From positions 1 through 64,000 of the IMG/VR virus record IMGVR_UViG_3300005099_000065: a DNA stretch of 64,000 nucleotides; one strand, 5' to 3'. This document shows positions 3,262-37,238 of this stretch, piece after piece. Each line of letters starts with the position of its first letter. Position 1 is the stretch's first letter. The position numbers and the translations under genes were made by a program. The DNA comes from a virus. The notes under the pieces are model-generated. The model was given only the letters and a program-made list of their open reading frames with translations. It ran no database searches and was not told the DNA's origin.

Positions 3262-3861
3262 ATGAGCGGATTTGGGTATGGAGAAAATCCTGAGATTTTG
3301 AGAAGTCTAAAATGGATTGACGCTACAAACAAAGCCTTCAAACACCACGTGGTCAGGATGGCTATTGGGACAGCTGATGCTTGTGAATATCCCCACAATG
3401 CAAATGATTTGATTTTCGGAGTGCTTCAGGATGAAGGTACATTGAACAATTGGGTCGTGGTGGCTTGTGGAGGGGTGGCAAAAGTCATTTGCTCCAAGGC
3501 AGGAACAGTCAACAAAGGAGATCCCGTCATCTATGACCACGCAAACAGTGGCGGAACAGTGGGTAAGGTAAGAAGTGCATTTGTTTCTGGTGAGCATGTG
3601 TCTGGTACAGCTGGCTATGCAAGCTTATCTCACAAAGCTGTTCCAGGCTCAGTCAAAAAGGCTTCGGGTACAGGCACTCCAATTTATCTGACAGCTGAAG
3701 GCACATCTGTTTATTTCAGTGGCGCTTATGATTGCACTTTGGCTTACCAGATTGATCAGCCTGTGATTGGTTATGCTTTAGAGGATGCTACCACACCAAA
3801 TCAGGAATTTCGGGTATTAATTGCAAGAGAAAGACATATCAAAAATTCTAGTGTAGTGTAA
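3262..3861 (+). CDS. Capsid decoration/cement-like protein
   Basis: Lies between scaffold and MCP; GVLQ...VVVACGGVAKV...KGDPV...IGYALEDA pattern; 8 Gly-Thr dipeptides. Confidence 0.65.
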   Translation: MSGFGYGENPEILRSLKWIDATNKAFKHHVVRMAIGTADACEYPHNANDLIFGVLQDEGTLNNWVVVACGGVAKVICSKAGTVNKGDPVIYDHANSGGTVGKVRSAFVSGEHVSGTAGYASLSHKAVPGSVKKASGTGTPIYLTAEGTSVYFSGAYDCTLAYQIDQPVIGYALEDATTPNQEFRVLIARERHIKNSSVV

Positions 3862-3877
3862 AGGAGGTGAGAAAGTA

Positions 3878-4789
3878 ATGGCAATCACTGTACAGACAGG
3901 CAATATTCATACCAATGTATATTTGTCCAAAATCGCAATTCAGTATGGGCAAGACCAATTCTATTGGGACAGGTTGTTGCCACCTTTCCTCGTGCAAAGA
4001 GAGAGTGACAAGATAAAGGTTTACAAAAAGGACGGTTACTTCAAAGGTGCTCCAATTCGTGCTGATGGTGCTCCAGCTGAAGAAGCAAGCCTCAGCTATA
4101 GCTATGATACCTATACATGCAAAGAGAGGGCACTGAAGGATATCGTCACAGACCGTGCTGTAGCTAATGCAGACAATGTGTTTAATCTCAAAGCTGATGT
4201 TACAAAGTTTCTCACTTCTCGAATCAAGCTTGGGATGGAAATTGACGTAAAGGATGTAGTCACATCCAAAATCACCAATTCATCCACTCCTAGTACCAAA
4301 TGGGACGATGCTGCTAATGCAGATCCTCAGGGCGATATTAGAACAGCTAAAATGACTATTGCCAAAGCAATTGGTCGCATGCCCAATGTCATTTATATGA
4401 CTCCTGAAGTCGAAACTGCATTAGCGAAAACCAACCAAGTCAAAGAACTCATCAAGTATACTAGCCGAGAATTGTTAACCAAAGGTGGTTTACCTGCTCA
4501 ACTTTGGGATTTACAAGTGATTGTATGTCCAGCTGTTTACAACAAAGCAAAGGAAGGCTTGAGTGTGGATATGGACTTTGTTTGGGGCGACACAGTGGTA
4601 GTGGCTTATGTCAATCCTGCTGACACCGTAACACTAGGGCGTACGTTCATCCATTCCAAGAGAAACTTTTTGGTACAGACTTGGAGGGACGAAGAAAGAG
4701 AGGGTGAGTGGATTCGCTGCTTGTGTAATTATGACCCCAAGATTCTTTGTCCTGATGCAGGTTATCTTTTAACTAACGTGTTGAGCTAA
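3878..4789 (+). CDS. Major capsid protein (HK97 fold, phage capsid E-like)
   Basis: HTNVYLSKIAIQY...DRLLP..VQRESD N-terminus, PNVIYM motif, 303 aa, strong RBS, position in the head module. Confidence 0.85.
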   Translation: MAITVQTGNIHTNVYLSKIAIQYGQDQFYWDRLLPPFLVQRESDKIKVYKKDGYFKGAPIRADGAPAEEASLSYSYDTYTCKERALKDIVTDRAVANADNVFNLKADVTKFLTSRIKLGMEIDVKDVVTSKITNSSTPSTKWDDAANADPQGDIRTAKMTIAKAIGRMPNVIYMTPEVETALAKTNQVKELIKYTSRELLTKGGLPAQLWDLQVIVCPAVYNKAKEGLSVDMDFVWGDTVVVAYVNPADTVTLGRTFIHSKRNFLVQTWRDEEREGEWIRCLCNYDPKILCPDAGYLLTNVLS

Positions 4790-4826: not shown

Positions 4827-5054
4827 TTGTGTATGTATGTGGAAGTGCTAAAATATTCAGTCACGTACCCTACAGGTCCCCAGCGTCCAGGGGACATTAT
4901 TGAATTAACGAGGAAGGAAGCCCGATATTACATGGAGTTGGGATGGGTGCGTCCCATTCATCGCAAGGATTTGAAGTTTAAAAAATCCAGACATATTTTA
5001 GAGGACAGAAATTTGGTCAAAGATTTAAGTGTGGCTAGAATGAGGAGAAGGTGA
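4827..5054 (+). CDS. Small basic hypothetical protein after MCP
   Basis: ORF with RBS, coupled to the next gene. Confidence 0.55.
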   Translation: MCMYVEVLKYSVTYPTGPQRPGDIIELTRKEARYYMELGWVRPIHRKDLKFKKSRHILEDRNLVKDLSVARMRRR

Positions 5055-5368
5055 TGGATAGCATAGGTTGGAGATTATACCATACAACTTTAATAAACAA
5101 TGGTACTAAAGTGATGGACGGCACTTGGGTGAGGGTGTCGGGTTTGCAAGAGATGGCGATCCACACCCAAATTGAGGGCACTTGTGTAGCCCAGATTAGA
5201 GGCAGCTGCGAAAGAAATTATCCTAACAATGATGGAGCTCAGATAGGCTCAAACATAACTTCAAGTGACATATATGAGTTGTATGCGCCTATTATGTGGG
5301 TAAAGGGCAAAGTGATAGCTGGTGGCGGGACTGTGAACATGTATTTGATGGGAAGAGCCCAATTATGA
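5051..5368 (+). CDS. Small beta-rich putative virion protein
   Basis: 105 aa, 4 Gly-Thr motifs, overlapping starts and stops with neighbours. Confidence 0.6.
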   Translation: MMDSIGWRLYHTTLINNGTKVMDGTWVRVSGLQEMAIHTQIEGTCVAQIRGSCERNYPNNDGAQIGSNITSSDIYELYAPIMWVKGKVIAGGGTVNMYLMGRAQL

Positions 5369-7494: not shown

Positions 7495-7496
7495 GA

Positions 7497-8705: not shown

Positions 8706-8719
8706 ATAAGGAGGGAAAT

Positions 8720-14166: not shown

Positions 14167-15231
14167 GTGAAAAAGGCTGGTGTAATTTCAGTTTGGTTCG
14201 AAAGAGGAGCTGGTTACATAGCCTATCAAATTGCTTCTTGCCTTCAGGAATGGGGATGGGGTGTTCGAATTTTGGCTCGACCCACCAATGTGAAAGGTCT
14301 GTCCAAAAGAACCTGGGAAAGAGAGTCATTTGAATTTCCAGTAGTGGTTTCTCCCTCCTATGAAATACCCCAAAGCCTTTTATCATTTTTCATTCGAGAT
14401 CTAGATGTAATTTTTTTCATTGAAGAACATTTCACTTTGAAACATACCATCCCATGTTTGGAATCATTCAGAGGTAAGGTGTTCAATTATGTGGTGTGGG
14501 AAAGCGTGAATCCCCAAGACAGAGAGTTGTATGAAAGATTCGACGCATTAATTTGTCCCACTTATGCTTGTTATAAAAGATTGAAAAATTACGAATTGAA
14601 AAATGTGTTTTATATGAGGTGGGGAATAGATGTTGATTATTGGCGACCAGGTCCTTTGTATGAAGGCAAAAGGAAAACGAGGTTTTTCTTTTGTGAAGGT
14701 TGGGGAGGAATGTATGGAAGAAAAAATTTTGGGGCAGTGATGGAAGCCTTTTCTTATACCATACCAACCAAGAAATGCGAATTGTACATTCACTCTCAAT
14801 ATCCCAAACCACCAGGCGAGGCACTGGAAGGATTGGGGTGGAAAAGAAGCTTCGGAAATGAAAGCCGAGACAAAATTCTCCGAGCTTACCATTTCAATGA
14901 TGTCACTTTGGTGCCAAGCAAATGGGAAGGTTTGGGTCTGAATCTTTTGGAATCTTTGTCTTGTGGAAGACCTGTCATCACAGTAGCTGCACCTCCAATG
15001 AATGAAATAGTGACTCCAGATTGTGGTTTGCTTTGTAATTGCATTTTGACCAAGCAGCAAGGGGTATTTGTGGATGTGGCTTTGGTTGATGTGAAAGATT
15101 TGGCGACATCCATGTTATTTTATGCAGACAATCCTATGATGTTGGTTCGTCATCAACAATTGGCTAGACAAAGAGCTTTGCAGTTGTACAATTGGGAGGA
15201 GAACAAATGGAAACTGAAAGAGTTGTTGTAG
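14167..15231 (+). CDS. Glycosyltransferase, GT4 (GT-B)
   Basis: VPSKWEGLGLNLLESLSCGRPVIT..APPMNE signature; RKNFGAV. Confidence 0.9.
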   Translation: MKKAGVISVWFERGAGYIAYQIASCLQEWGWGVRILARPTNVKGLSKRTWERESFEFPVVVSPSYEIPQSLLSFFIRDLDVIFFIEEHFTLKHTIPCLESFRGKVFNYVVWESVNPQDRELYERFDALICPTYACYKRLKNYELKNVFYMRWGIDVDYWRPGPLYEGKRKTRFFFCEGWGGMYGRKNFGAVMEAFSYTIPTKKCELYIHSQYPKPPGEALEGLGWKRSFGNESRDKILRAYHFNDVTLVPSKWEGLGLNLLESLSCGRPVITVAAPPMNEIVTPDCGLLCNCILTKQQGVFVDVALVDVKDLATSMLFYADNPMMLVRHQQLARQRALQLYNWEENKWKLKELL

Positions 15232-15821
15232 GTATCGTGAAACAAAGATTGGAATTGTTATCTCATGGAGACTTGGGAGGAGCTGTTTATTTTTTGTATG
15301 AAGAAGCAAAAAAATTCAAGGACAAAGATTGGGCGTTGGAACTAGGTGTGGGTCCTGGACGCTCAACCGAGGCAATTTTGTGGGGAATCAAAGAATCAAA
15401 TTCCAACGCAAGATTGTTCAGCGTGGATTATAAACCTTGTTCTGATGCTCGGGAGAGAATCAAACAATTGGGACTGAATTGTTATCATGTGTTCATTCGT
15501 GAGGATGACCGAAATGCGTTGAAAATCATAAGAGGAATACAAATGTTTTTGGGGAAAGGTTTCAGCCCTGCAGCTCGTTTTGTGTTCATTGACTCATCTC
15601 ACGAGTATGAGCATACAGTGACGGAACTCTTCAGTTATTCTTGGCTTACCAACCAGGTTTTCCTTCATGGTACAGAAAGGGTTGAGGTCAAAGCAGCTAT
15701 CGATTTGTTTTTGAGATGTTCCAAGATGAATGAATGGAAATACAAAGAAAGAGGTTGGCGACACGGTTTTGCTATTTTAACCCGTGTCAAACCATTGGGT
15801 GAGGGGGTGATGATAAAATGA
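15207..15821 (+). CDS. Class I SAM-dependent methyltransferase (Methyltransf_24-like, glycan O-methylation)
   Basis: LELGVGPGRST, LFSVD, VFIDSSHEYEHT; GGAGGA RBS before ATG 15207. Confidence 0.8.
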   Translation: METERVVVGIVKQRLELLSHGDLGGAVYFLYEEAKKFKDKDWALELGVGPGRSTEAILWGIKESNSNARLFSVDYKPCSDARERIKQLGLNCYHVFIREDDRNALKIIRGIQMFLGKGFSPAARFVFIDSSHEYEHTVTELFSYSWLTNQVFLHGTERVEVKAAIDLFLRCSKMNEWKYKERGWRHGFAILTRVKPLGEGVMIK

Positions 15822-16057
15822 AAGAAGATGCTGAAGTGATAGCCAAGTTGGTGGAACATTTTCTGAGGCTTTGGTCAACCAATCCAGACAATCTTCATCC
15901 CCAATATGCTTCCACAGGTAAAGCCGAATTGAATTTTTATTTGGGTAAGTGGAGATTGGAGATAAAAGCCGAAGTGGGAGAAATTCGCTTCACAGTTACA
16001 CCATTGGGAGGTGTAACGCCATGGTGGAACATGGGTTTAAACCAGGCGACAGGATAA
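15818..16057 (+). CDS. Hypothetical protein
   Basis: ORF coupled to the upstream stop. Confidence 0.5.
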   Translation: MKEDAEVIAKLVEHFLRLWSTNPDNLHPQYASTGKAELNFYLGKWRLEIKAEVGEIRFTVTPLGGVTPWWNMGLNQATG

Positions 16058-16212
16058 AAATCAAGTCAAATGAAACCACGAGAATGATGTGTTTGGATGG
16101 GAAAGAGGGAGTGGTTGTGCAAATAGAGAAGAACCAAATTTTGGTAGATGTGACAGAGGCTGGACTTTTTTGGTTTTGGCCAGATGAAATAGAAAAGATG
16201 GAAGATGATTAG
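16021..16212 (+). CDS. Small KOW/SH3-like protein
   Basis: FKPGDRIKIK...GKEGVVVQIE; GGAGG RBS. Confidence 0.55.
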   Translation: MVEHGFKPGDRIKIKSNETTRMMCLDGKEGVVVQIEKNQILVDVTEAGLFWFWPDEIEKMEDD

Positions 16213-16219
16213 GAGGTGA

Positions 16220-17356
16220 ATGATGAAATTAGTGTTTTCAGTCATTATCACCAGCGCAGCAAAATCAGAAACCAGACAAATATGGTTGTTCGAAGCTTTA
16301 ACATCTGTTTTGTCCCAGTCTTACCCTTATTGGGAGTGCATAGTTGTGGATGATACAGGTGAGCAGTTGCTAAAACCGATAGTAGAGAAAGCTCGAAATC
16401 TCGCTACCAATCCCATTTTGTATGTGCCCAATCTTTGCAATTTGGGTTTGCAAAAGTCGTTCAACATTGGTCTGTTTTATGCTGCGGGAGATTGGATTGT
16501 GAGATTGGACGATGACGATCAATTCTATCCTTGCACTTTGAATGAATTGGCTTTATTTATCCAAAAATGTCCAGACAACGTGGTTTTTGTTCACAGTGAT
16601 ATTGCTTTCATGCATGGAGGTGTGTACAGCTATCCAGAATGGGACGGCACTTTGGAAGGTACTGAGAGAATTGGCCACGTGCAGGCTATCAAGAGGCAGG
16701 CTTTGCTTCAAATAGGAGGGTGGAGAACAGACATTGATTATGCAGCAGATACAGACTGTGTGATTAGGCTTCTGGAGATGGGCTGGGAAATTCGACACAT
16801 TCCGAAGGTGTTGTACCTCAATCGTCATCATGAAGATCAGTACACTGTGTGGTATGCCAAACATAAAGATCCCATAAAGGCTAAGCGGAGAGTTTTTCAG
16901 GATGCTTTGAAACGCAATTATGAGTTTTGGAGATATCGTCAGTCAACTTTTCAACCTATGACATGTGCTAAAGTGGCTGATGTGCTGGAGGCTGTGAAAA
17001 AGTATTTGAAAGGTAACGGAATTGAGTTAGGAATGCAAGTCATTGGGCTTAGCTCAGACATTTTTGCGAGCGTGAAAGACGAGATGGTATTTGAGGATGA
17101 GAGATTGGATTACGTTTTAATTTTTGTTTCTGACTTATCTCAGTTGATTAAGAAAAAGATATTGCTTTGCTCTCGCAAGGTGAAAAGGGGAGGACATTTG
17201 ATTTTGGTTATCAGTCGCAAACGAGATCCCGAATGGCGTCAAGGCTTTTTGATTTGGATAACCAATAAATTTAGAACCAAAGATTTTGACTTGATTCAAT
17301 TAGACACAGCCAAAGAAGGAGAGTGGTCAGAATGGGTACTAAAAAAACGGTGTTAA
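16220..17356 (+). CDS. Glycosyltransferase GT2 fused to a degenerate methyltransferase-like domain
   Basis: FSVIIT...WECIVVDD...WIVRLDDDD...DTDCVIRL; C-terminal GNGIELG...KVKRGGHLILV. Confidence 0.85.
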   Translation: MMKLVFSVIITSAAKSETRQIWLFEALTSVLSQSYPYWECIVVDDTGEQLLKPIVEKARNLATNPILYVPNLCNLGLQKSFNIGLFYAAGDWIVRLDDDDQFYPCTLNELALFIQKCPDNVVFVHSDIAFMHGGVYSYPEWDGTLEGTERIGHVQAIKRQALLQIGGWRTDIDYAADTDCVIRLLEMGWEIRHIPKVLYLNRHHEDQYTVWYAKHKDPIKAKRRVFQDALKRNYEFWRYRQSTFQPMTCAKVADVLEAVKKYLKGNGIELGMQVIGLSSDIFASVKDEMVFEDERLDYVLIFVSDLSQLIKKKILLCSRKVKRGGHLILVISRKRDPEWRQGFLIWITNKFRTKDFDLIQLDTAKEGEWSEWVLKKRC

Positions 17357-18198
17357 TTTTGGGGGCAAATTTCGACAACGTCGCAGGAATGGAATCAGGT
17401 GTGGCCAAAGCTTTTCGCCAGTTGAATTGGAATGTGATTGCTTTGTCGTATCGCAAAATGTTTCCTAGCAATTTGTTTATGAAAGTGGATGAAGCTTATG
17501 CAAAAGGAATAGATTTGGTGTTGGTTATCAAAGGTGAAAGAGTAGATCCTTTGCAAACCTTTCCTCGTGCTTCTGTACCCAAAGCATTTTGGTTTCAAGA
17601 CGATGTACGCTGGAGTAAAACCAACTGGGCTTTGTTTCAGACTTTGTTTCCTTATTATGATTATGTTTTTTATTTTGATCAATCGGGAATTGAATGGATG
17701 CAAGACAAAATAAGAGGGAAGGTCTATTTTTTGCCATTGGGTTATGACCCTGAAGTTTATCGACCTCGATCGAAGAAGAGAGATGTATGCTTTTTATGTT
17801 CTGTTGTAGGTCCAAGGTTGGAAGTAGCTTATATATTAAAGCATCGCTACAATGCTTTGGTTGGTTGGGTTGGAGACGATTACCCTAAGCTGTTAGCTGA
17901 GACTAGAATTGCAGTGAATTGGGGATTGACCTTCCAATCTACCCAACAGCGAGTTTTCGAAGCAGCTGGATGTGGGTGTGTGGTAGTGACCAGTTGGGTG
18001 GATGAGAAATATCGTGTGTTAAAAACACCTATATATGTGAAGGATTTGGAACACTTGACCAAAGAAATCGATGAGCTCTTAGTCGATGAAGAAGAGTTGA
18101 AGAAAAAAGCTCAGCAAATCAAAACAGAATCACAAAACCATACTTGGAAGCACAGAGTTTTGTCTCTTTTAAACCAAATCCAAGGAGGAGACAAATGA
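17332..18198 (+). CDS. CgeB-like glycosyltransferase (GT-B)
   Basis: FLPLGYDPEVYRP, TRIAVNW...QRVFEAAGCG, NHTWKHRV. Confidence 0.8.
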   Translation: MGTKKTVLILGANFDNVAGMESGVAKAFRQLNWNVIALSYRKMFPSNLFMKVDEAYAKGIDLVLVIKGERVDPLQTFPRASVPKAFWFQDDVRWSKTNWALFQTLFPYYDYVFYFDQSGIEWMQDKIRGKVYFLPLGYDPEVYRPRSKKRDVCFLCSVVGPRLEVAYILKHRYNALVGWVGDDYPKLLAETRIAVNWGLTFQSTQQRVFEAAGCGCVVVTSWVDEKYRVLKTPIYVKDLEHLTKEIDELLVDEEELKKKAQQIKTESQNHTWKHRVLSLLNQIQGGDK

Positions 18199-19990: not shown

Positions 19991-20355
19991 GGCAATTGTT
20001 AGGCACTCAAGCAAGAAAAAGAGGCTATCAAATAAACAGAGTTCAGTTGAAATTGAAAAGACATCGAACATTAACACCAGACATCGTGGCGTATGTTATG
20101 GGGACTCGCTGCGTGTTGGGGTGGGATTGTGAATCTTGTCCCAAATATTCTCATTGCAAAAAGCGAGTCCAAAGGGATCTCTTTTATCAAAAGAAAATTG
20201 AAGACGAAGTGTTAGACTATTTGGACAGAGCCAGAAAAAGCAGAGGTCCCGATTTATGTGATTTGGGAGTGGTAAGTGATATAGTACAGGAGGAATATTT
20301 ATATGAGTGGGAAGAGGATTTCGAAGGTATCAATTATCATTCCAGTTTACAATAA
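19987..20355 (+). CDS. Hypothetical protein with Cys cluster
   Basis: CVLGWDCESCPKYSHC; coupled ORF. Confidence 0.5.
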   Translation: MRQLLGTQARKRGYQINRVQLKLKRHRTLTPDIVAYVMGTRCVLGWDCESCPKYSHCKKRVQRDLFYQKKIEDEVLDYLDRARKSRGPDLCDLGVVSDIVQEEYLYEWEEDFEGINYHSSLQ

Positions 20356-22354
20356 TTTGCAATTGTTGAAGAAGTGCATAAGCTCGCTTCGTCAACACCA
20401 TGCTGGAGCTGAATATGAATTGGTGATTGTGGACGATGGGAGTACAGAGCCTGGGACGAAAGAGTATTTGAGCAATTTTGAAAATGTGATACAGCAAAGC
20501 AATCAGGGATTTATAAAGGCATGCAACCACGGAGCCAAAGTAGCAATTGGCGAATATCTTTTGTTTATGAATTCAGATATCGAGGTTTTGCACGATGGTT
20601 GGCTGGGAAGGTTGGTGATGGTATTTGAAGAGAAAGAGGATGTGGGGATAGTAGGATGCAAATTGATTTTCCCTGACGACACTGTACAACATTGTGGTAT
20701 GGAATTTTCCTCACGCCATATGAATTTCATTCACCGTCATTATCGAGCCCACAAAGCAGATCCTCAAGTAAACCAAAGCGGATACGTACCAGCTGTTACA
20801 GGAGCTTTGTTTATGGTGAGAAGGAAAGTGTGGGATGAGTTGAATGGATTTGATGAACAGTATGTATTCGGATATTTTGAAGACACGGATTTTTGTATGA
20901 GAGCTTTGGAGAAAGGATGGAAAACTTATTATTGTGCTTCGGTGGAAATGATTCACCACCAGTCAGCTACCACGGGAGGATGTCCATCTGAAGTCTGGTT
21001 TCACAACCATGAAATTTTTAAACAGAGATGGATCCGAACTGGCAAACTATGTCGTTATCCTAAAATAGCAGCTTGCTACATTGTATTCAATGAAGCCGAA
21101 TTCATCAGCGAAAGCTTAGCCAGCATTTATCCTTGGGTTCACAAAATCATCATTGTAGAAGGCTGTACTGAATACACAAAGCAATTTGCTCGACCAGATG
21201 GAAGCAGTAGTGATGGGACAGTTGAAAAAATAAAAAACTTCAATGATCCTCAGAAAAAAATTGTACTCATTCAAGGAAAGTGGAAAGACAAAACACAAAT
21301 GAGAAACGAATATTGCAAACATTTGAAAGGATTTGATTATGCTTTGGTTGTGGATGGAGATGAGGTATGGAGTTATCGGGAAATGGCAAAAGTAGAGGAA
21401 TTGATGTTCAAAGAACCGCATGTCAGAGCATTCAGTTTTGGAATGTATGAGTTTTGGAAAGACTTTACCAGAGTGAACAAAGGAGTGTGGGAACAGTTTT
21501 TGGGTCGTCGTACTTTGATAAAATTGGACAAGGGGCTCAAGTACAAAGATCATTTGACTCCTGTCACAGAGGATGGTCAAGTGATTCCAGCCACTTTGCA
21601 TCCCGAAATTCATTTTCACCACTACAATTATTGCCAAAGTGATGAAAAAATTAAGCAAAAATTTGAATATTATCTCAAGAAAGGCACTCCTGGTTTCAAG
21701 CTGAATGGAAATTGGTATGAAGAAGTGTGGAAGGCTTGGGATAAAGACCGAGTGAAAGTGGAAAGCACCACAGGCAATCATCCATTTGGGGGTGGGTACA
21801 CAGTGGAATATCTGGGAGATCATCCCGAAGCTGTACGCAACCATCCCAAATACCAACATTTCCTTTTCATTCGCAAGCGTTCCATTTTGTTTACATGCGA
21901 TTTGAATTTCCAATTGCCGTTTTTTCATCGGCTCACCCCTTATGATGTGAATCCATTAGATCCTTTTGCTCACGATGTCAAGGTGTTCGTGTTGTATGAT
22001 TTTTTGTCTCATTATTCCAAAAATGAAATTCAATCCATTTTGAACAATTTGTGTGCTTTGTTGGACAACCAAGGAGAAATACGCATCATTGAACCCGATG
22101 CCGAAAAGATAACCCGTGCCTTCTGTTCTCGCCATATCTCTATTTCAGATCTCAACAATTTGCTTTTGGGTAATCCCAATCATCAATTTGGACAAAGGAA
22201 AACTTTGTTGAATGTGAGTTTGTTGAAGATTATGCTTTTGGCTGGTGGATTTAGTTTTATCCAAAGCCTTGACAGACCAGATTTTTTCTTGGAAATCAGG
22301 GCATTCAAATCCCCAATTTATAATATTTTTAGACATTTGAAAGGAGGGATTTGA
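20303..22354 (+). CDS. Double GT2 glycosyltransferase with a C-terminal methyltransferase-like remnant
   Basis: First GT2: VSIIIPVYN, VDDGS, FMNSD, AVTGAL, YFEDTDFC. Second GT2: CYIVFNEAEFI, VVDGDEVW. Confidence 0.9.
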   Translation: MSGKRISKVSIIIPVYNNLQLLKKCISSLRQHHAGAEYELVIVDDGSTEPGTKEYLSNFENVIQQSNQGFIKACNHGAKVAIGEYLLFMNSDIEVLHDGWLGRLVMVFEEKEDVGIVGCKLIFPDDTVQHCGMEFSSRHMNFIHRHYRAHKADPQVNQSGYVPAVTGALFMVRRKVWDELNGFDEQYVFGYFEDTDFCMRALEKGWKTYYCASVEMIHHQSATTGGCPSEVWFHNHEIFKQRWIRTGKLCRYPKIAACYIVFNEAEFISESLASIYPWVHKIIIVEGCTEYTKQFARPDGSSSDGTVEKIKNFNDPQKKIVLIQGKWKDKTQMRNEYCKHLKGFDYALVVDGDEVWSYREMAKVEELMFKEPHVRAFSFGMYEFWKDFTRVNKGVWEQFLGRRTLIKLDKGLKYKDHLTPVTEDGQVIPATLHPEIHFHHYNYCQSDEKIKQKFEYYLKKGTPGFKLNGNWYEEVWKAWDKDRVKVESTTGNHPFGGGYTVEYLGDHPEAVRNHPKYQHFLFIRKRSILFTCDLNFQLPFFHRLTPYDVNPLDPFAHDVKVFVLYDFLSHYSKNEIQSILNNLCALLDNQGEIRIIEPDAEKITRAFCSRHISISDLNNLLLGNPNHQFGQRKTLLNVSLLKIMLLAGGFSFIQSLDRPDFFLEIRAFKSPIYNIFRHLKGGI

Positions 22355-23881: not shown

Positions 23882-24231
23882 GAAACTGTGCTATTGATGA
23901 AGAGATTGTGTTGGAAAAACATGAAGAATTTTACGTGGTTTACAGCCCTCAAGTCAAGGGAAACTTCCAACTCACTTTAGGAGATATCAAATTCAAAGTT
24001 TGTCCTCTCAGTTGGATTAGCTCTGACAGCTGGTATTATTTGGAATTGTTTCATTTGTGCAAAACTTTGCATTGTCTGCCTGAAGAAGGAGGAGTGCTAG
24101 ATCAAGACAACAAAACAATGGAAGCATTTCAAATCATAGCAACAGAAATTCAACGTTATTCCGAACGGATGAAATCGCAAGAACTGCAAATGTTGCCACA
24201 ACTGGAGCAAATGAGATGGAGAAAGAGTTAA
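23878..24231 (+). CDS. Tail assembly chaperone T portion (G-T fusion via frameshift)
   Basis: In the -1 frame relative to G; LPEEGGVLDQ motif. Confidence 0.7.
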   Translation: MRNCAIDEEIVLEKHEEFYVVYSPQVKGNFQLTLGDIKFKVCPLSWISSDSWYYLELFHLCKTLHCLPEEGGVLDQDNKTMEAFQIIATEIQRYSERMKSQELQMLPQLEQMRWRKS

Positions 24232-26576
24232 CACTAAAAATCAGAGCCAAAAATTTAGCAACCAGAACATTTGAGGAAGTAAAATCAGGGCTGAACAAGC
24301 TGGATAAAAGTTTGTCCAGCCTTGCAAAAACTGTTTTTTCAGTAAAAGGAGCTTTGGGTGGATTGATAGCTGTTTTGGGAGCTAGAGAATTAGGACAGAC
24401 TTTGGTTAAAGCGGGAACTGATTTAGAAACATTCAGAACACAGTTGCAAGCTCTCTACCAAGGCAATGTGGAATTAGCTGAACAGGCTTTGCAAGCTGTT
24501 ATTCAATTTGCTGAAAAAACCCCATTCTATACCAAAGACGTTGTAAACGCATTCATTATGTTAGAGGCGGCTGGAATCAAGGTTTCAAGCAAACTCTTGA
24601 AAACATTAGGAGACACTGCTTATTTGTTCAACCGAGACATTTCTGAAGTAGCTAATGCCTTGATTGGTATGGAAACAGAGGTGTGGAGGAGGCTGGGTGT
24701 GGTTATTGACAGAACCGGTAAGAAAGCAGTTATCAGTAGTGGAAATATAAGGATGGAAGTAGAAAATACTATCGCATCCATCAGAGCAGGGGTGGTGGAA
24801 TTGTTGGAAAAGAGATTTTCAGGGGCAATGGAGAAAGCCGAGGGCACATATGTTGGAGTTATGAGGATACTGGGGTCCATCTGGGATATCTTTTGGATGA
24901 AAGTGACTGAAAGCGGAGTTTGGGATTACATCAAAGCAGTGTTTCAAACCTTGCTAGATTACATCAACCGTTTTCGTGAACAAGGTAAACTCGATGTATG
25001 GGCGAAAAGCGTATCAAATGCTCTCATAGTGGCTTTCAAGACCGGAGTAGAGAGCATTGGTGTGTTTATACGGGCGATGGATGTGTTGAGAAGTGCTTGG
25101 AATGCAGTTAAAGGAGTTATAGCTTTAGCCTTGTCCACAGTTGCCGCAGGTTTGTCTAAAGTGTTAGGAGGATTGTCCAAAGTGGTGGATATTTTCAGGA
25201 GAGACTGGGCTCAATCTCTTAAAAAGGCTTCCGAGGATTTACAAACTGTGCGGACAACTTTGGTAGAGACAGCTGTTCAATCACTAGATGCATCCAAAAA
25301 ATACTACAATGACATCTTGAAACACGAAAGAACTTTTGATGAATTTCAAAGAAATGTTGAATCAGCTTTTCAAAGAAACATAGAAATGACCCAAAGGCTT
25401 CAGGAGGTGGAAACACAAAGAGCCAATGCATTGTCAGAAAGCAACTTGAAACTATTGGAGCAGCAAGATTTGCAATACAAGAAAGAACAAGAACTGGCTG
25501 AAGAGAGAGAAAAATTTGAAGAAGAGAGATTGAAATATTTTGAAAAAATAAAAGAGGAAATGATGAGTAAGAGCGAGCTTTATGCCAAGAAGATGGAAGA
25601 GGAGATTGAAAAGTACGCACGCACTGAAGAGGAGAAAATGTTGATTCGCAAATACTATGAGGAGAAAATTGCAGAAGCTAGAGCCCAAGAGATCGAGCAA
25701 GAGAAACAAGCAATGGCTGAAAGACTGGGTGTGTGGATTGCTGGCAATAAAGAGCTGATAGATGCTACCACAGCTGATTTGGAATACTTGACCCAAAAGG
25801 CAAAGGAATTTTCCAAAATCTATGGTGAAGAATTAGCCAAGCCTATGGTGGCTCTCTTGGCTGGCATTGATATGGCAATCAATGAAATACCAAAGAAAAA
25901 CGAAATCATAATGAAGATGGGCAAGGATTTGGTCGAAAACTTGCATGAAGGCTTTAAGGGAATGTTCAAAGGCTTAGTCACAGAGGGAATCGGAGGATTC
26001 AAAGATGCTTGGAAACAAATGCTCAATTCTATCAAAAACACATTCATAGACACTTTTGCTGAGTTGGCAGCCAGTAGAGCCTTGCATGCGCTGAAGTGGG
26101 CGCTCATAAAACTGTTTGAGGACGTTTTGAAGTCAAGAGCCTTGATAGCCTTAGTGAAATTGCTTGAAAATGTGTTTGGTTTCGATTTAAGCCCTCATTT
26201 TGATTTCTTGAAGATGTCTGCCAGTGCTTTCAGACCCACATCGTTGCCGATCCACCGTTCACTTGCTTCGCTGAGTGCTTCTTTGTTTGCTCCTGCGTTA
26301 CCAATGTCAATTGCTGGCATTAGTCCAATTGAAACCAGACCAATGTTTCAAGAAGCCACACCACCATCCCAGCCAATCATAACTACCACATTGCCTGCTG
26401 CTACTTATGAAGCACAACCTAGAAAACCAACCACAGTGAACCTGAATGTGAAAATATCCACATGGGATTCGGCAACTATGGCCAAAGTCGTGAAAGAAAA
26501 AGTTATCCCGAATCTCATTGAAGACATTAGAAACTATGGAGCATTGAGAACAGAAATAACCAAAGTAACAGCATGA
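24216..26576 (+). CDS. Tape measure protein 1
   Basis: Tape-measure N-terminal pattern (ETFRTQLQAL...FAEKTPF...AFIML), long helical/coiled-coil body, follows G-T. Confidence 0.85.
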   Translation: MEKELTLKIRAKNLATRTFEEVKSGLNKLDKSLSSLAKTVFSVKGALGGLIAVLGARELGQTLVKAGTDLETFRTQLQALYQGNVELAEQALQAVIQFAEKTPFYTKDVVNAFIMLEAAGIKVSSKLLKTLGDTAYLFNRDISEVANALIGMETEVWRRLGVVIDRTGKKAVISSGNIRMEVENTIASIRAGVVELLEKRFSGAMEKAEGTYVGVMRILGSIWDIFWMKVTESGVWDYIKAVFQTLLDYINRFREQGKLDVWAKSVSNALIVAFKTGVESIGVFIRAMDVLRSAWNAVKGVIALALSTVAAGLSKVLGGLSKVVDIFRRDWAQSLKKASEDLQTVRTTLVETAVQSLDASKKYYNDILKHERTFDEFQRNVESAFQRNIEMTQRLQEVETQRANALSESNLKLLEQQDLQYKKEQELAEEREKFEEERLKYFEKIKEEMMSKSELYAKKMEEEIEKYARTEEEKMLIRKYYEEKIAEARAQEIEQEKQAMAERLGVWIAGNKELIDATTADLEYLTQKAKEFSKIYGEELAKPMVALLAGIDMAINEIPKKNEIIMKMGKDLVENLHEGFKGMFKGLVTEGIGGFKDAWKQMLNSIKNTFIDTFAELAASRALHALKWALIKLFEDVLKSRALIALVKLLENVFGFDLSPHFDFLKMSASAFRPTSLPIHRSLASLSASLFAPALPMSIAGISPIETRPMFQEATPPSQPIITTTLPAATYEAQPRKPTTVNLNVKISTWDSATMAKVVKEKVIPNLIEDIRNYGALRTEITKVTA

Positions 26577-26577
26577 G

Positions 26578-29500
26578 ATGGCTGAATTACTTCTTACAGT
26601 ACGAGCAAAAAATTTGGCTAGTCCTGAGCTCCAACGCATCGCATCTGTTGCTTCCAAACCAATAGTGCCTCCCTGGTTAAAAGCAGTTGGTCTGTTTTAT
26701 CTAGGACATGAATTTAGGCGATTAGCTTCCTCGTACTCAAGCGTGCATTCTCAGTTGGACGTCTTTTTGGTTCAAATCGCCACTGTGAAAAAGGTTTCGC
26801 TAGAAGAGGCATCTCAAATTCTGTTCCAATTGAGAGACTTCGCCAGAACACTGCCATTCAAGACCTCTGACGTGATTCAGGCTTGGACATTGTTGAACAG
26901 TGCTGGATTTCCTGTGGGTATAGAATCCTTAAGACACATTGCTGACACAGCTTTTGTATTCAATCGTACTATGACAGATGTGGCTCAGGCTATGATAAGC
27001 CAAGAAACTGAAGTGTTAAGACGATTAGGTGTCATCATACAAAGAGGACAAAAATCTATCCGAGTTTCCTCCAAAAATCTCAACACTGAAATTGAAAAAT
27101 CTCGATATGCTTTGTTCCGAGCCATCCAACAAAGCCAAAAAGCTTATGAAGGAGCATCGTCCCAAGCTTATCACAATGTGCAAGGTCTGGTAGCCATATT
27201 CAGCAGTGAATGGTGGGAGTTTTTGGCCAATGTGAGGATGAAAGGATTTGGCGATTATTTGATGGCAACTTTGACCTCTTTATTGCATTGGGTTGAGAGC
27301 AAAAGACGAGAAGGCACTTTGGAAAGATGGGCTCAAAGGATATCCCAAACCTTGGTCTCCCTCACTGCTTTGGCAATGAAAGGATTTCGGATGCTTTTGG
27401 AATCTGTTATTGTGGTTGGAGAAGCCTTGAGAGACTTTTTGAAACTCATTATTGATTTCAAACAAGCTTTCTCATTGAAACCAACTGAAGTACGAGCATC
27501 AGTCCCTTCATTAACCACTCCCGATTTGACTTTGGAAGCCGAGCAAGCTGTTGCCCAGATGGTAGAGGCTTTGAAAGAGCTTTGTTATTCAAACACAGAC
27601 TTTCTGCAGCAAGTGGAAAGAAGATACAGAGAAAATCGCAAACTCACTTTGCAACTCATCCAACTCCGAGCCCAGACAACTCAAATGGCTTCCCAATCCA
27701 ACTTGGGCACATTAGTTGAACAAGCCGAACAAATCAAAAGGAAACAAGAACAGCTGAAACAAGCAGAAAAATTAGCCAAAAAGCAAGAGAGCTATTTCTC
27801 CAAGCTCTTGGACAAAATGAAAGACACTGCTGTGGGGCTGGAAAAGAGCTATGAGTTGGAGATAGAGACATATGCTCGCACAAATGAAGAACAAGAGCTC
27901 ATACGTGCCAAATTCCACAAGTTGTGGATAGAAGCAATAGAAAAGCGCACTCAACAGATAGAACAATTCTTGAAGGATCTACCTGGTGACGAAAGACAAA
28001 TTCAAGAACAAAAGCTTCAACTTGTGATGATTCACATAAAGGAATTGAATCAACTTGTTGGCTCATATCATGAAAAATTTCTCCAATCTCCTTCAATAGC
28101 TGTAGAGGCTTACCAATCTCATTCTGTGGTAGTGATTAAGAGAGCGAAACAATTGTTGAAGGTTGTGGAAGATTTGCCCTATGTTGAAACAGGTGAACCT
28201 TATGCAAAGCTAAGCGAGATTTGGGAAAAATTGTTCATGGCGAAAGTGATAATAATTGAAGGCAAAAAGTACGAGGGTTTTTTCATAGTTTTGAACAAAC
28301 TTCCATCTGATTTAAAAACCTCATTGTCCCCCATGGTCGAACAATTAAAGTCGACTTTTTCAGTCAAGGCTTTGCAAGAATGGTGGAATGAAGTTTGGAC
28401 AAGTCGAGCCACCCAAATGTTTTTTGGTCTTTTTGACAGACTTTTTCACGCCAAACCAGCACCACCTTCATTTTGGAACACCTTCAAGAGAACGCTTTTG
28501 AAAGCTTTAGAAGAAGCGGCTAAGAAACTGGTAGCAAAGCTGCTAGTTTCCCTTTTCAGAATCACCATTGGAGAATTAGGTTGGTTTATGTTTTCATTGC
28601 AAGGTGAAAGGATTGTAATGGCACTGCTTGGATTGTTTGGAATAGACTTGAGTCCTGCTGCTCAACAAATCGCCAAAGCAGGATGGTTCACAGGTTTCGT
28701 GATTCATCCTATTTATGGAGGTTTGGTAGGTGCGTTCATTGGAGCTTTGTTAGGTAAATTGTTTGATGTGTTTGGATTGTTTAGAGCGTCCAAAACTATT
28801 TACAGATTTGTGGGTCCTATTTACAGCATATACATCTCGCCCAGAATCTGGATGGGAGGAGGAGGAAAGGGATTTGAAACAGCTGTCACAGTCGATCATC
28901 TGGTTATTCCTAGTTTGGGAGCTCAATTTGGTTGGAAAATGGCAGTGGCTCAAAGGATATCCCGAGTGCAAATGTATGTCCAACAATTCATATCATCCAA
29001 ATTGGGAAGCAACATCCCTTATGCACAAAGTGCTGCATCGATTGCTTACTACAGAGCCATAGTTAATTCAAATGAATGTGCTCCTGAAGGATATCCTGAA
29101 GCTGTATTCATATCAATCCGAAATCCTCAAGAGGCTTTAATCAAAATGGAAAGATTTTTGTGGCGTTTTGCTGTCTATTACATACAAGAACTGGTTTTTG
29201 CTCAATCTGTGTTCAAAGCTCTTCCTCCACAACAAGCTCGTTCTACATATTTGCAATATTTGCATTATGCCGTAGCCCAAGCCAGGAGATCCTTGCCAAT
29301 CGTCTCTTCAAGTGGATGGGCTAGATGGCAAGAAAGAGTATATTCCAAATCACTAGGCGAAGCGTCAAAGCTCGTGATGTCAGCCAAGCGAGAACGCTAT
29401 TACACCAAAGAGACGTACATGACCCAGATAATGACACCAATCAAATATGCTCCATATCCCTACACAGTGATAAGAAGAGTGCCTACTGGTTACAAAACAG

Positions 29501-29985
29501 TGACATATGAGAGAAAAGTACCCGTGGTCCACCTCAGAGAAATTGGCGAAAGGATTATTCCATTTGAAACACCATGGGGAATAGAGGAAAGACGAATCAA
29601 AATTTATGAACAATATATCACATATGAAACCAAGACAGAAGTAAAGAAAATCCCAATTGGTTATGAAACACGTAAAGTAATCAAATACTTACAACGACCC
29701 ATAGCATGGAAGGTGAAATATGTGAGACAAACGAGATGGACTCCACTCATATCACCCGAAGAAATGGAGCTTTTACATCCTCAATATCTGCCAGCAGCTT
29801 TGCACAGATTCCATCCTGGTGATTTCCTAGAAGTGTCCTATGGTTCAAAAGCAGAGCTGGTTGAAAAGATTTTACCCGAACAAACATTTGATGTGAATAT
29901 TGAAATAACAGACATAGATGGAACGTATGTAGATGAAAGCCTGAGACCCATTGTGAGACAAATCATGTCCAGCTTGGGAGGTTAA
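26578..29985 (+). CDS. Tape measure protein 2 (diverged paralogue)
   Basis: N-terminal ~250 aa align by eye with TMP1 (RAKNLA; FNR...VAxAxIxxETEVxRRLGVxI); hydrophobic central part. Confidence 0.7.
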   Translation: MAELLLTVRAKNLASPELQRIASVASKPIVPPWLKAVGLFYLGHEFRRLASSYSSVHSQLDVFLVQIATVKKVSLEEASQILFQLRDFARTLPFKTSDVIQAWTLLNSAGFPVGIESLRHIADTAFVFNRTMTDVAQAMISQETEVLRRLGVIIQRGQKSIRVSSKNLNTEIEKSRYALFRAIQQSQKAYEGASSQAYHNVQGLVAIFSSEWWEFLANVRMKGFGDYLMATLTSLLHWVESKRREGTLERWAQRISQTLVSLTALAMKGFRMLLESVIVVGEALRDFLKLIIDFKQAFSLKPTEVRASVPSLTTPDLTLEAEQAVAQMVEALKELCYSNTDFLQQVERRYRENRKLTLQLIQLRAQTTQMASQSNLGTLVEQAEQIKRKQEQLKQAEKLAKKQESYFSKLLDKMKDTAVGLEKSYELEIETYARTNEEQELIRAKFHKLWIEAIEKRTQQIEQFLKDLPGDERQIQEQKLQLVMIHIKELNQLVGSYHEKFLQSPSIAVEAYQSHSVVVIKRAKQLLKVVEDLPYVETGEPYAKLSEIWEKLFMAKVIIIEGKKYEGFFIVLNKLPSDLKTSLSPMVEQLKSTFSVKALQEWWNEVWTSRATQMFFGLFDRLFHAKPAPPSFWNTFKRTLLKALEEAAKKLVAKLLVSLFRITIGELGWFMFSLQGERIVMALLGLFGIDLSPAAQQIAKAGWFTGFVIHPIYGGLVGAFIGALLGKLFDVFGLFRASKTIYRFVGPIYSIYISPRIWMGGGGKGFETAVTVDHLVIPSLGAQFGWKMAVAQRISRVQMYVQQFISSKLGSNIPYAQSAASIAYYRAIVNSNECAPEGYPEAVFISIRNPQEALIKMERFLWRFAVYYIQELVFAQSVFKALPPQQARSTYLQYLHYAVAQARRSLPIVSSSGWARWQERVYSKSLGEASKLVMSAKRERYYTKETYMTQIMTPIKYAPYPYTVIRRVPTGYKTVTYERKVPVVHLREIGERIIPFETPWGIEERRIKIYEQYITYETKTEVKKIPIGYETRKVIKYLQRPIAWKVKYVRQTRWTPLISPEEMELLHPQYLPAALHRFHPGDFLEVSYGSKAELVEKILPEQTFDVNIEITDIDGTYVDESLRPIVRQIMSSLGG

Positions 29986-30557: not shown

Positions 30558-30558
30558 G

Positions 30559-34812: not shown

Positions 34813-37238
34813 GTGTAGTAGATGAAAGATTGGAAAAAGTAGGCAAAGGCTTAGAGGAAACCAGAGACTTAAGATTGTGTCTCAAATTGAGTATAGGAAC
34901 AATTGTTCGTTACTTCATAGATGGAGAAAAACCCCTAGATTTAAAAGGCACTTATTGCGAACCCAGAATTGTGAATTATTCGCCTTTGACAGAAAATTAC
35001 AACCCTGAGTCTTTGGAATTTCAGATCAGTGACATGAGCTTCAGTCTAGCCAATGGAGATCGTTACTTTTCTCGACACCCATTCAATCACCAATGGTTGA
35101 TTGGAGCCGATGCAAATGTTTTGATTGGTTATGAAGATATTGAATTTTCAAGTTGGAAAAAAATATTGGAAGGCAAAGTCAAGAAAGTGTTCTGGCAAAA
35201 CTCAATATTTCACATAGATATCAGTGACTCACTGAAAAAACTAGATCGACCTGTGCCAGATATAACAGTAGGGACAAATGAATTTCCACAATTAGATCCT
35301 GAATATGAAGGTCGTCCTATTCAATATTTTTGGGGAGATTGGACTAGAGGCACAACTTCATGGCTTTGGTGCTATGATATACCTGCAGGCAATCGGTCAG
35401 GCACTTATTGGACAAGTGGCGGAAATATGGTGTTAGTACATAATGAGGGTACACTATTAATAAGTCCTGACGGATTGAATTGGGAAATAGGAACTGTTGC
35501 TCAGGGAACAAGATTCAGATGTTTGAAGCAATTCGGGACTTTGATTTTTGTAGGAGATGAATATGGAAATATATATAAATTTTCAGATGTCAGAATGAGA
35601 ACATGGACAAAAACTTTTACAGGCACATTTATGACTCAAAACATTGTGTATTCAATGGAAAAAAAGACATTGCTTGGAACGGATTATTTATGGGTTTCTT
35701 TTGGAAATGTTTTAACTAAAACACCAAATGGTTATGACTTTGAAAAAGTATGGAAATTTGATTATCATGTTACAACACTGAAAACAGATGAAGATGAAAA
35801 ATATCTGTATGCAACTCCTTACTACTCCATACAATGTTCTGAAAATGGAACAAGTGGATGGATTGCAGTTGTAGATAATATAACCGATCAATTCTTTTGT
35901 TCAGCTATATTTGGTACAACTGTGTGTTTTGGAGCAAGTAATGCAAAGGTGTACAAAGTCTTTGGAACCAGATTTGCAGTAGAAAAACTAGAGGATTCAT
36001 ACAATCAGGTATGGAGCATGACAAAAAGCTACAAATACCTTTATGCTTGGGTTGCACGTGGCGGTTGGATCAAGCTGTTTCGCAGCGATGGCCAAAAGTG
36101 GGAAAAAATTTACCAAGCCAAACACAGTACACCCGTCTGGCCGTACATAGAATTTTTCAAAAACAAATTGGTTTCTCGTCATTTGGTATGTTACAGAGAA
36201 CCAACCACACCAGGGGGAAACTTTGAAGCCATACCAATTTCAAATAACAGACGAAAATGGCTCATATCTAGACAATACGTAGATAAGCTAGATGTATGGT
36301 TAGGCAAAGTGCAACTCGATTCTACTATGTATTTGTTACGAAGAGGTACTGTCTATAACTTCGGAACCAGAAATTGCTCCTACATTGAATTGTCCGACAA
36401 AATTCCAGATGATGAGATAGGAACTCATGTGGTTACATTTTGTCCTCAGGTTACCAAATATGGAGAAAACGTTTCAGATGTATTGAAAAACATCCTTACA
36501 TGGAATGAATTGGGAGGATTTGCCGAAATTGGAACCACATTTGATGTGGCTAAAAACAACTTTCCAAATGCAAAACTAAACATTTATATGGTTGAACAGA
36601 GAAGGCTAGGACAAATTTTACACGATATAGCCAAACAGACATATGGCATCGTGTATTTTGAAGGAGGAATCCCCCAATTCAGAATATTCAAAGATATAGA
36701 TCAAGAAACAGTTTCAAAGCAAATAGATCAAAATGACATTTTGGAATTTCAGCTTGAAAGAACAATAGATCAAATCACAAATGAAGTTACAATTTATCAC
36801 TCGTACAACGAAGCTCAAAAAATATATCGCTCTATATTGAAAGTGTTGGGCACTGCTGCATATTTAGAATATGGAATCAAACAACCAATCACTATACATG
36901 GCAAATATTTAGTAGGAACGGGTTTTGCATATGATGTAGCTGTTAGATATTTGAATGATTTGCAAGTGGGGTATTATTGTTTGAGGATGAAATTGCCCTT
37001 GAAATACATAGTGTTGCATCTGGGGGATGTGATACAAGTCACATATGATGAGGGACCTAGCCAAGAAGGAGGATTCACAAACAAGAGATTCAGAATGTAT
37101 TCTATTAAAAAGGATTTTGCAGACAATTCAATTGAAATTGAAGCAATTTCTCCAATTGAAATGTATGCTCTGAAAGAAGACTACAAAACCGTACTCAGTA
37201 CAGAAGAACATTTGTTTATAGCAGGAACAACTTACTAG
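34809..37238 (+). CDS. Baseplate hub / tail-associated protein with a beta-propeller-like insertion
   Basis: Hub-like N- and C-termini (ITNEVTI.H.YN; LHLGDVIQVT); 21 Gly-Thr dipeptides. Confidence 0.65.
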   Translation: MSVVDERLEKVGKGLEETRDLRLCLKLSIGTIVRYFIDGEKPLDLKGTYCEPRIVNYSPLTENYNPESLEFQISDMSFSLANGDRYFSRHPFNHQWLIGADANVLIGYEDIEFSSWKKILEGKVKKVFWQNSIFHIDISDSLKKLDRPVPDITVGTNEFPQLDPEYEGRPIQYFWGDWTRGTTSWLWCYDIPAGNRSGTYWTSGGNMVLVHNEGTLLISPDGLNWEIGTVAQGTRFRCLKQFGTLIFVGDEYGNIYKFSDVRMRTWTKTFTGTFMTQNIVYSMEKKTLLGTDYLWVSFGNVLTKTPNGYDFEKVWKFDYHVTTLKTDEDEKYLYATPYYSIQCSENGTSGWIAVVDNITDQFFCSAIFGTTVCFGASNAKVYKVFGTRFAVEKLEDSYNQVWSMTKSYKYLYAWVARGGWIKLFRSDGQKWEKIYQAKHSTPVWPYIEFFKNKLVSRHLVCYREPTTPGGNFEAIPISNNRRKWLISRQYVDKLDVWLGKVQLDSTMYLLRRGTVYNFGTRNCSYIELSDKIPDDEIGTHVVTFCPQVTKYGENVSDVLKNILTWNELGGFAEIGTTFDVAKNNFPNAKLNIYMVEQRRLGQILHDIAKQTYGIVYFEGGIPQFRIFKDIDQETVSKQIDQNDILEFQLERTIDQITNEVTIYHSYNEAQKIYRSILKVLGTAAYLEYGIKQPITIHGKYLVGTGFAYDVAVRYLNDLQVGYYCLRMKLPLKYIVLHLGDVIQVTYDEGPSQEGGFTNKRFRMYSIKKDFADNSIEIEAISPIEMYALKEDYKTVLSTEEHLFIAGTTY

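Follow-up and report, generated by a model that had tools for sequence, protein, structure and literature searches.

The DNA analysed here is the first 64 kb (64,000 nucleotides, hereafter the window) of IMG/VR virus record IMGVR_UViG_3300005099_000065, a genome of 79.7 kb and 40% GC. It belongs to an uncultured siphophage that is remote from cultured phages: among 50,697 phage records, its major capsid protein reached at most 27% identity with any counterpart, and its tail-tip genes gave no match by blastn or tblastn. The window (Table 1) carries head and tail genes together with a glycan-synthesis island located just upstream of the tail tube gene. Our subject is the dipeptide Gly-Thr (G-T), which is in strong excess in some of the virion proteins encoded around this island.

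Expected dipeptide numbers were corrected for the composition of each protein, and 5000 shuffles were made per protein. The 731-residue tail-tip protein contains 25 G-T compared with 6.0 expected, the 809-residue tail-tip or hub-like protein 21 compared with 4.6, and the capsid decoration protein 8 compared with 1.4; for none of the three was a count as high found in the 5000 shuffles. An excess was also found for the 179-residue protein of the structural module (8 versus 2.1, shuffle p = 0.0002) and for the 105-residue protein (4 versus 1.0, p = 0.007), which is the weakest of this five-protein set. When the five virion proteins were pooled, 66 G-T were present where 15.1 were expected (z = 13), making G-T the most extreme of the 400 dipeptides, with Q-I second at z = 4.6. 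Depending on the protein, 34% to 62% of the Thr residues are preceded by Gly. The remaining proteins of the genome, once pooled, stood near expectation both for G-T (63 versus 58.5) and for the reverse dipeptide T-G (58 versus 58.5). The composition correction, which a preliminary description of this DNA had proposed as a check, thus left the enrichment in place. Neither T-G nor G-S was enriched (1, 2, 1, 5 and 0 occurrences of G-S in the five proteins), and D-T and D-S were outside the top ten over-represented dipeptides.

The enrichment spans unrelated families (cement-like, tube, Dit-like or lectin-like, and hub-like). No excess was observed in the major capsid protein (0 versus 1.2), the two tape-measure proteins (TMPs; 2 versus 2.5 and 3 versus 2.9), the portal-side proteins or any of the enzymes, including those of the island and the 840-residue polymerase, which has no G-T at all. 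The manual counts of the preliminary description (25, 21, 8, 8, 6 and 4, with 0 for the major capsid protein and the polymerase, 2 and 3 for the TMPs and 6 for 5296-7494) were reproduced, apart from the open reading frame (ORF) 9575-10543, which had been credited with three G-T and contains two as listed. At the DNA level, the five genes carry GGNAC 66 times in frame 0, written with 12 different codon pairs, and about 5 times out of frame. The signal therefore lies at the protein level, as had been proposed. A DNA-level cause was rejected, since we found neither tandem or dispersed repeats nor an off-frame excess of GGNAC.

It could be argued that the excess is a product of chance or of the composition of Gly- and Thr-rich proteins, or of a post hoc choice of proteins, all the more so as the five-protein set was picked after the counts had been seen and the 105-residue and window tube proteins are weak individually. 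However, the expectations are composition-corrected for each protein and T-G stays at its expected level. An unbiased scan of the whole 79.7-kb genome tested about 35,200 combinations of protein and dipeptide; the first rank was taken by G-T in the 731-residue protein (p = 5e-9), the second by G-T in the 809-residue protein (p = 2e-8) and the fourth by G-T in the decoration protein. The third outlier was C-H in a multihaem cytochrome-like ORF (70105-71202), a reassuring positive control for the detection of real motifs by such a scan. Moreover, the pattern recurs in orthologues and distant relatives outside the defining set, and we consider an artefact to be almost out of the question. The cytochrome-like ORF itself, past the end of the window, encodes 365 residues with six C-H and is unusual cargo for a phage.

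Relatives of this phage are scarce, only a handful being present among 5.8 billion clustered proteins. In the 731-residue protein, whose most distant orthologues are 53-56% identical, 22 of the 25 G-T are invariant, and so are 19 of the 21 in the 809-residue protein across four orthologues of 56-82% identity; the background, that is any dipeptide with both residues invariant, is 0.31 and 0.28, respectively. Either residue of G-T is invariant at 0.88-0.90, compared with 0.33-0.76 for positions -4 to +5 around them, which is near background, and 0.33-0.47 for Thr without a preceding Gly. A 55%-identical relative encodes 19 of 22 and 16 of 19 of the conserved sites by other codons. The decoration protein keeps seven of its eight G-T in a 67%-identical orthologue (L013:16536-17135), and the tube protein keeps all six in a relative that adds two more. 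Since both residues are so nearly invariant and their flanks are near background, the alignments point to strong purifying selection on G and T and on little else nearby.

The excess is found again in the relatives' own proteins: 7 versus 1.4 expected in the decoration protein, 4 versus 1.5 in a 112-residue protein, 8 versus 2.9 in the tube, and 29 versus 5.7 and 23 versus 5.6 in the 725- and 813-residue tail-tip proteins. There too the major capsid protein (0 versus 1.2) and the TMPs (1 and 3 versus 2.7 and 3.7) show none, and the enzymes are near expectation. A scan of IMG/VR with an alignment of the 731-residue protein gave no match. An exhaustive profile search with the same family returned only proteins of about 255 residues, which match its N- and C-terminal parts and whose genes, in readable contigs, directly follow the tape-measure gene, that is the Dit position. 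The 731-residue protein consists of these two parts plus inserted lectin-like domains, the leads for the latter being distant matches that carry F5/8 type C and Laminin_G_3 or concanavalin-like domains. For the 809-residue protein the sole functional lead is a weak one, a language-model resemblance to Phage-tail_3 clusters (0.86). Six of the Dit-like proteins contain 6-8 G-T versus 1.2-2.1 expected, and the whole set 67 versus 23.4, with 19 T-G; one member, P0021, has zero G-T. A further IMG/VR scan with a 7-sequence Dit-like alignment returned no contigs beyond those already in the set.

We then considered which genes accompany the excess. The contigs of P0013 and P0018 are too short for the status of the island to be read; that of P0012, a G-T-rich Dit-like protein, was judged from gene calls and has GT2 and NeuB ahead of its tube gene. 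On L020, the contig of P0015 (GC 32%), NeuB, GT9, GT2 and GT2 genes lie directly upstream of the tube gene, and G-T is in excess in the tube (11 versus 3.0), the Dit-like protein (7 versus 1.6) and a 619-residue protein (15 versus 3.8), but in none of the enzymes of this contig, nor in its chaperones or its TMP. As NeuB is among its gene calls, the L020-type island may build a different glycan, one that contains a nonulosonic acid. In the L020-type clade (L033:1-9943 and the upstream regions of L047, L049 and L059) about 10 kb of further genes, mostly unlabelled, precede GT9, GT2 and the tube gene, and only two genes of that region matched query proteins. Overall, G-T excess and island co-occur in the clade of the window and in the L020/L025/L049/L059 clade. 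L023 is also G-T-rich and has only a partial GT2 homologue, located at the contig end.

In a survey of IMG/VR and JGI metagenomes scanned with tube and GT9 alignments, every tube homologue whose upstream flank was captured had transferase genes immediately upstream, and the tubes of island-bearing relatives contained 8-13 G-T versus 3-5 expected. Summed over non-identical ORFs, the observed/expected ratio (O/E) was 3.1 for seven non-identical tubes (72 versus 23.6), 4.2 for Dit-like proteins (28 versus 6.7) and 3.9 for 619-like proteins (18 versus 4.6), compared with 0.7 for island enzymes (19 versus 26.6), 0.8 for TMPs (20 versus 26.1) and 1.15 for everything else (49 versus 42.7).

The preliminary description had named homologues in phages devoid of glycosyltransferase genes as a check, and most of them show no excess. 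L017 (GC 61%), the contig of P0021, has the full MuF-to-Dit run with zero glycosyltransferase genes and no G-T-enriched protein, its cement-family protein included. At three columns of the Dit-like alignment where most G-T-rich members have G-T, P0020 and P0021 show GS/GA, GA/TT and TQ/PD; of these two, P0021 is the one known to come from an island-less contig. In four cultured phages (Acidovorax AP1, Pseudomonas KPP25, ctwe8250 and Bacillus Dartukuta) the homologues of the 179-residue protein contain 1-2 G-T versus about 2 expected, and at the G-T sites of the window they have S-T, K-T, R-T, I-T or unrelated residues. Because other residues precede the conserved Thr in these four homologues, Gly was added in the lineage of the window, often beside an existing Thr. 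Searches with the Pfam GT2, GT9 and GT1 families gave nothing above cut-off in these four phages, AP1 having one sub-threshold GT2 match. The tube homologues of JenP2, pB23 and Vibrio 1.207.B have a G-T O/E of 0.9-1.5, with nothing above cut-off in GT2 and GT1 searches. The genome-wide O/E was 1.03 in RDJL Phi 1 and 0.89 in Vibrio phage 1.033.O; no structural protein of these two was enriched, 900-1360-residue tail proteins included, and nothing exceeded the cut-off in RDJL Phi 1 (searched with GT2 only) or in Vibrio 1.033.O (GT9 and GT1 only). The one exception is the haloarchaeal virus HHTV-1, whose tube homologue (KC292025.1 20986-22005) has 11 G-T versus 4.0 expected and no T-G, in a genome where no GT1 or GT2 gene was found. 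Two of its G-T columns are in common with the island clade. Either host enzymes act on this tube or part of the G-T content of the tube family is intrinsic to the fold.

The latter possibility belongs to the main rival explanation, in which G-T is a clade-specific turn-to-strand idiom, Gly ending a tight turn and the beta-branched Thr opening a strand, kept for folding or assembly and unrelated to the island. Besides HHTV-1, several observations speak for it: the enriched proteins look beta-rich and the alpha-helical TMPs have no excess, and all positive lineages are related, so that common descent could account for the co-occurrence. The sole flanking trend, a mild preference for a hydrophobic residue after Thr (0.60 versus 0.41) in one of two sets, that of the window, also goes in this direction. 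In residues 545-597 of the 731-residue protein a G-T occurs every 9-12 residues, a spacing that resembles hairpin strands but would also suit sites displayed on turns. In contrast, large beta-rich tail proteins elsewhere are at expectation (12 versus 12.1 in gp84 of RDJL Phi 1, 10 versus 7.1 in a 914-residue protein of Vibrio 1.033.O), as are two proteins of island phages, the 1039-residue protein of L020 (18 versus 22.3) and the beta-helix protein of the window (6 versus 4.1). Homologues of the same fold have other residues at the aligned positions, meaning that the folds do not need G-T, and the Thr, invariant at 0.9, is not swapped for Ser, Val or Ile as is usual at strand starts, nor is G-S enriched. 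A structural requirement of one fold is therefore insufficient, given that at least four unrelated families are affected, and we judge this explanation rather unlikely, though worth keeping in view.

The glycosyltransferase island reported in the preliminary description is real, as judged from its Pfam and NCBIfam matches (Table 1), and syntenic in relatives. The stretch from GT2 to double GT2 lies directly upstream of the tube gene in L008, L010 and L045. In the relatives the order is GT2, Glyco_trans_1_2, epimerase, GT9, a 123-residue protein, double GT2 and tube gene, with GT4 and methyltransferase at the end of the head module and the island directly after the replication and recombination genes. 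This conserved synteny marks the island as an old core feature of the lineage. Outside it, a dehydratase-like protein, which also matches the NCBIfam dTDP-glucose 4,6-dehydratase model with 297 bits, under that model's cut-off, is a possible sugar-precursor enzyme.

Table 1. Features of the structural module and of the glycan-synthesis genes in the window (TMP, tape-measure protein; NDP, nucleoside diphosphate)
Feature	Position	Strand	Match or remark
Scaffold or protease-like gene			First in the order of the structural module, before the decoration protein
Capsid decoration protein, cement-like, 199 residues	3262..3861	+	Pfam Phage_cement_2, slightly below cut-off
Major capsid protein	3878..4789	+	PHROG major head protein, E = 1e-60
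105-residue protein, downstream of the major capsid protein gene	5051..5368	+	Without family match
AT-rich block, including the beta-helix protein	5296-11745		
Beta-helix protein, 732 residues, in the AT-rich block	5296-7494		
Structural-module protein, 179 residues	11767..12306	+	phrog_8123
Small head-tail genes			After the 179-residue protein, before the island
Glycan-synthesis island, ~8 kb	14167..22354	+	
GT4/GT1	14167-15231	+	Above Pfam cut-off
Methyltransferase	15192-15821	+	
GT2	16220-17356	+	Above Pfam cut-off
Glyco_trans_1_2	17323-18198	+	Above Pfam cut-off
NDP-sugar epimerase/dehydratase	18144-19100	+	Best NCBIfam match, weak: ADP-heptose 6-epimerase
GT9 heptosyltransferase-like	19097-19990	+	Pfam Glyco_transf_9, 45 bits versus cut-off 22
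Unknown, 122 residues	19987-20355	+	
Double GT2	20303-22354	+	Above Pfam cut-off
Tail tube protein, 354 residues	22356..23420	+	Pfam Phage_tube_2; PDB 8xan (major tail structural protein), E = 2.8e-12
Chaperones, then two TMPs	24216..29985 (TMPs)	+	PHROG tape-measure matches
Two small genes, then inverted TerL	31090-32601 (TerL)	-	
Tail-tip protein, 731 residues	32617..34812	+	
Tail-tip or hub-like protein, 809 residues	34809..37238	+	
Tail-tip gene, 358 residues			Last of the listed tail-tip genes
NDP-sugar 4,6-dehydratase (RfbB-like), outside the island	44784..45818	-	Pfam GDP_Man_Dehyd, 210 bits

Within the island, the GT9-like protein is the best conserved, with 62% identity in the relative of the window clade and 44-47% in the L020 clade; homologues were located in both clades (L010:11782-12705, L020:1282-2184 and L025:6885-7787). 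Its PDB matches, 3tov and 1psw (heptosyltransferase II), cover residues 186-234 only, and its match to lipopolysaccharide heptosyltransferases is limited to the nucleotide-sugar-binding part. Outside that part, in the C-terminal 60 residues, C236, C259, C266, C276 and H262 are invariant in four sequences of 44-62% identity, and the four Cys may form a metal-binding knuckle. The GT9-like protein, with this conserved cluster, is our first candidate for the chain-initiating enzyme, GT4 being the second. That the sugar would be a heptose is hinted only by the GT9 and epimerase pair.

Several other features of the window were noted. The block 5296-11745, which encodes the beta-helix protein and several unknown proteins, has a GC of 0.32-0.36 compared with 0.41 in its surroundings and is missing from the head modules of L013 and L014. 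The preliminary description had taken it for a recent import; low GC and absence from the relatives fit this proposal, and the block probably represents a cassette for a fibre or depolymerase, acquired by exchange. The first ORF of the window (6-1283) is open at its 5' end. The equivalent place in the head operon of the relatives (L013:11070-14603) encodes 1177 residues that combine the domains of a Mu-like prohead protease, a methyltransferase and an ATP-dependent DNA ligase. A 164-residue protein encoded at 13056-13550, amid the genes for head-tail joining, gave a match to the PHROG holin family phrog_3427 (E = 2e-17). TerL stands between tail genes and its orientation is inverted relative to that of 55%-identical relatives (L001:8272-9867 and L005:6131-7693), in which about 3.4 kb of small genes stand ahead of TerL; two of these small genes have homologues at 69-70 kb of this genome.

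The affected proteins are particle proteins of phages that have a sugar-transferase block beside the tube gene, and for this reason the reading of G-T as an acceptor motif is the most economical. We see about an even chance that cytoplasmic glycosyltransferases encoded by the phage O-glycosylate Thr and that G-T forms the core of their acceptor motif. In the late phase of infection, the first sugar would be added by a single island enzyme to the Thr of G-T on the decoration, tube, Dit-like and tail-tip proteins, where the dipeptides are probably placed at the junction of a turn and a strand. Lengthening and capping of the glycan would then fall to the remaining transferases and the methyltransferase, and selection would have built up and kept many G-T sites on these particle proteins. 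A fuller version of this proposal is somewhat less probable than its contrary: a Gly-Thr code read by a phage cytoplasmic O-glycosyltransferase, most likely the GT9-like protein with its Cys4 knuckle, which would write a glycan coat into the sequences of the decoration, tube and tail-tip proteins and would be one member of a wider, so far undescribed class of short acceptor codes on virions, each particular to its phage lineage.

The conservation of both residues shows that they matter and not what happens to them. G-T might thus have another reader, being a mark for phosphorylation, methylation-linked chemistry, cross-linking, a chaperone or a protease, and the island might modify DNA or the surface glycans of the host. 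The methyltransferase of the island would suit such a scheme, and so would the position of the island after replication and recombination genes. Phage glycosyltransferases that add sugars to DNA are known (bioRxiv 10.1101/2023.12.21.572611). On the other hand, inspection, by eye only, revealed no gene for a kinase, ligase or protease that travels with the excess, and the sole gene set visibly common to all G-T-rich lineages is the sugar-transferase block beside the tube gene. We regard another reader as improbable.

Several points weigh against the acceptor-motif reading. The evidence for sugar attachment to these proteins, and for Thr as the acceptor, is indirect and comes from sequence. The tube, which the preliminary description had placed among the enriched proteins, does have the six G-T counted, but in the window this is not significant alone (6 versus 3.6, p = 0.14). 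Both the beta-helix protein and the 1039-residue protein of L020 are probably exposed on the particle and are not enriched, and no flanking consensus was found around G-T. With 63 G-T in the other proteins of the phage, the dipeptide alone is not specific, so that structural context would also have to be read. AlphaFold2 models of the candidate substrates were unusable, the predicted local distance difference test (pLDDT) being 31 for the decoration protein (2-sequence alignment) and 29 for the 731-residue protein (3-sequence alignment). The association of island and G-T is phylogenetically confounded, with few independent contrasts, because all island-bearing lineages share the tube and Dit families and form one broad clade. 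Finally, the island could act on another substrate, for instance DNA or host envelope glycans; in the relatives it directly follows replication and recombination genes. Our confidence is kept near the midpoint because the evidence is not chemical, the positive lineages are related, HHTV-1 is a counter-example, the dipeptide needs context and the island may have a different substrate. The benefit of a sugar coat is a further step of inference, and the 'glycan shield' of the preliminary description is a functional guess.

Phage-particle glycosylation has so far been documented in a few mycobacteriophages. In the full-text literature that we searched, neither an acceptor motif of the G-T kind nor a general rule predicting sugar sites on phage particles from sequence was described, and phage glycoproteomics was confined to mycobacteriophages, although such an absence is not proof. 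If the acceptor-motif reading is true, virion glycosylation would be predictable from sequence alone in uncultured phages, down to the substrate proteins and the sites per particle. The enzyme and its motif would also constitute a small portable enzyme-plus-tag pair for glyco-engineering in the bacterial cytoplasm, and the finding would bear on how environmental phages shield or disguise their particles.

Short acceptor motifs are known from other systems. The O-glycosylation motif of Bacteroidota is D-(S/T)-(A/I/L/V/M/T), and that system acts outside the cytoplasm on exported proteins. N-X-S/T is read by cytoplasmic HMW1C-type N-glycosyltransferases (PMC3012730). As would be the case for G-T, a motif of two or three residues marks the acceptors and is present in many copies in the target proteins. 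The differences are that here Gly precedes Thr and that no constraint was found on what follows it; relative to the Bacteroidota motif, the residue before Thr is not Asp, G-T being the only outlying dipeptide, and assembly of phage particles is cytoplasmic. No HMW1C-like (GT41) gene was revealed when the island proteins were scanned with Pfam and NCBIfam.

A second comparison is with the bacterial autotransporter heptosyltransferases (BAHTs). The island resembles them in having a heptosyltransferase-related enzyme, the GT9-like gene standing beside an epimerase that weakly matches ADP-heptose 6-epimerase, and the candidate substrates resemble theirs in offering many sites across proteins that look beta-rich. 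BAHTs modify Ser on beta-helix autotransporters, whereas the candidate acceptor here is Thr on phage particle proteins, in which G-S is not enriched. The BAHTs TibC and AAH act on TibA and AIDA-I, and TibC is a cytoplasmic enzyme of heptosyltransferase fold with a four-Cys iron finger that hyper-glycosylates beta-rich autotransporters (PMC4358343). The four Cys residues of the GT9-like protein, whose possible knuckle recalls the idea of this iron finger, are spaced unlike C339, C342, C358 and C370 of TibC (same source), and membership in the TibC/AAH group was rejected, since neither 4RAP nor 4RB4 was returned when the whole set of PDB sequences was searched by profile at E <= 10. With TibC unmatched by sequence and Thr in place of Ser as the candidate acceptor, the likeness to TibC is a working analogy and not a membership.

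Among the closest known systems is that of the mycobacteriophages Che8, Corndog and Myrna, whose own glycosyltransferases modify capsid and tail-tube proteins, according to PMC12363180 and PMC11256854, citing Freeman et al. 2023, Cell Host Microbe 31:1216. Both cases concern a tailed phage with its own glycosyltransferase genes, which here are above the Pfam cut-offs and kept in relatives; the substrates in mycobacteriophages are particle proteins modified in the host cytoplasm by phage enzymes, and in the present phage particle proteins are the candidate substrates. The present phage differs by its host and its lineage, which are unrelated to those of the mycobacteriophages; no cultured phage has a major capsid protein more than 26% identical to its own. 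Its island is larger, comprising an epimerase and a methyltransferase besides about six transferase domains, and the likely targets are its decoration, tube and tail-tip proteins and not the major capsid protein. No dipeptide-type acceptor motif spread through proteins is mentioned in the two citing papers. By analogy with these phages, the G-T reading, for and against which we see about equal weight, would extend virion glycosylation from the mycobacteriophages to an unrelated lineage of tailed phages.

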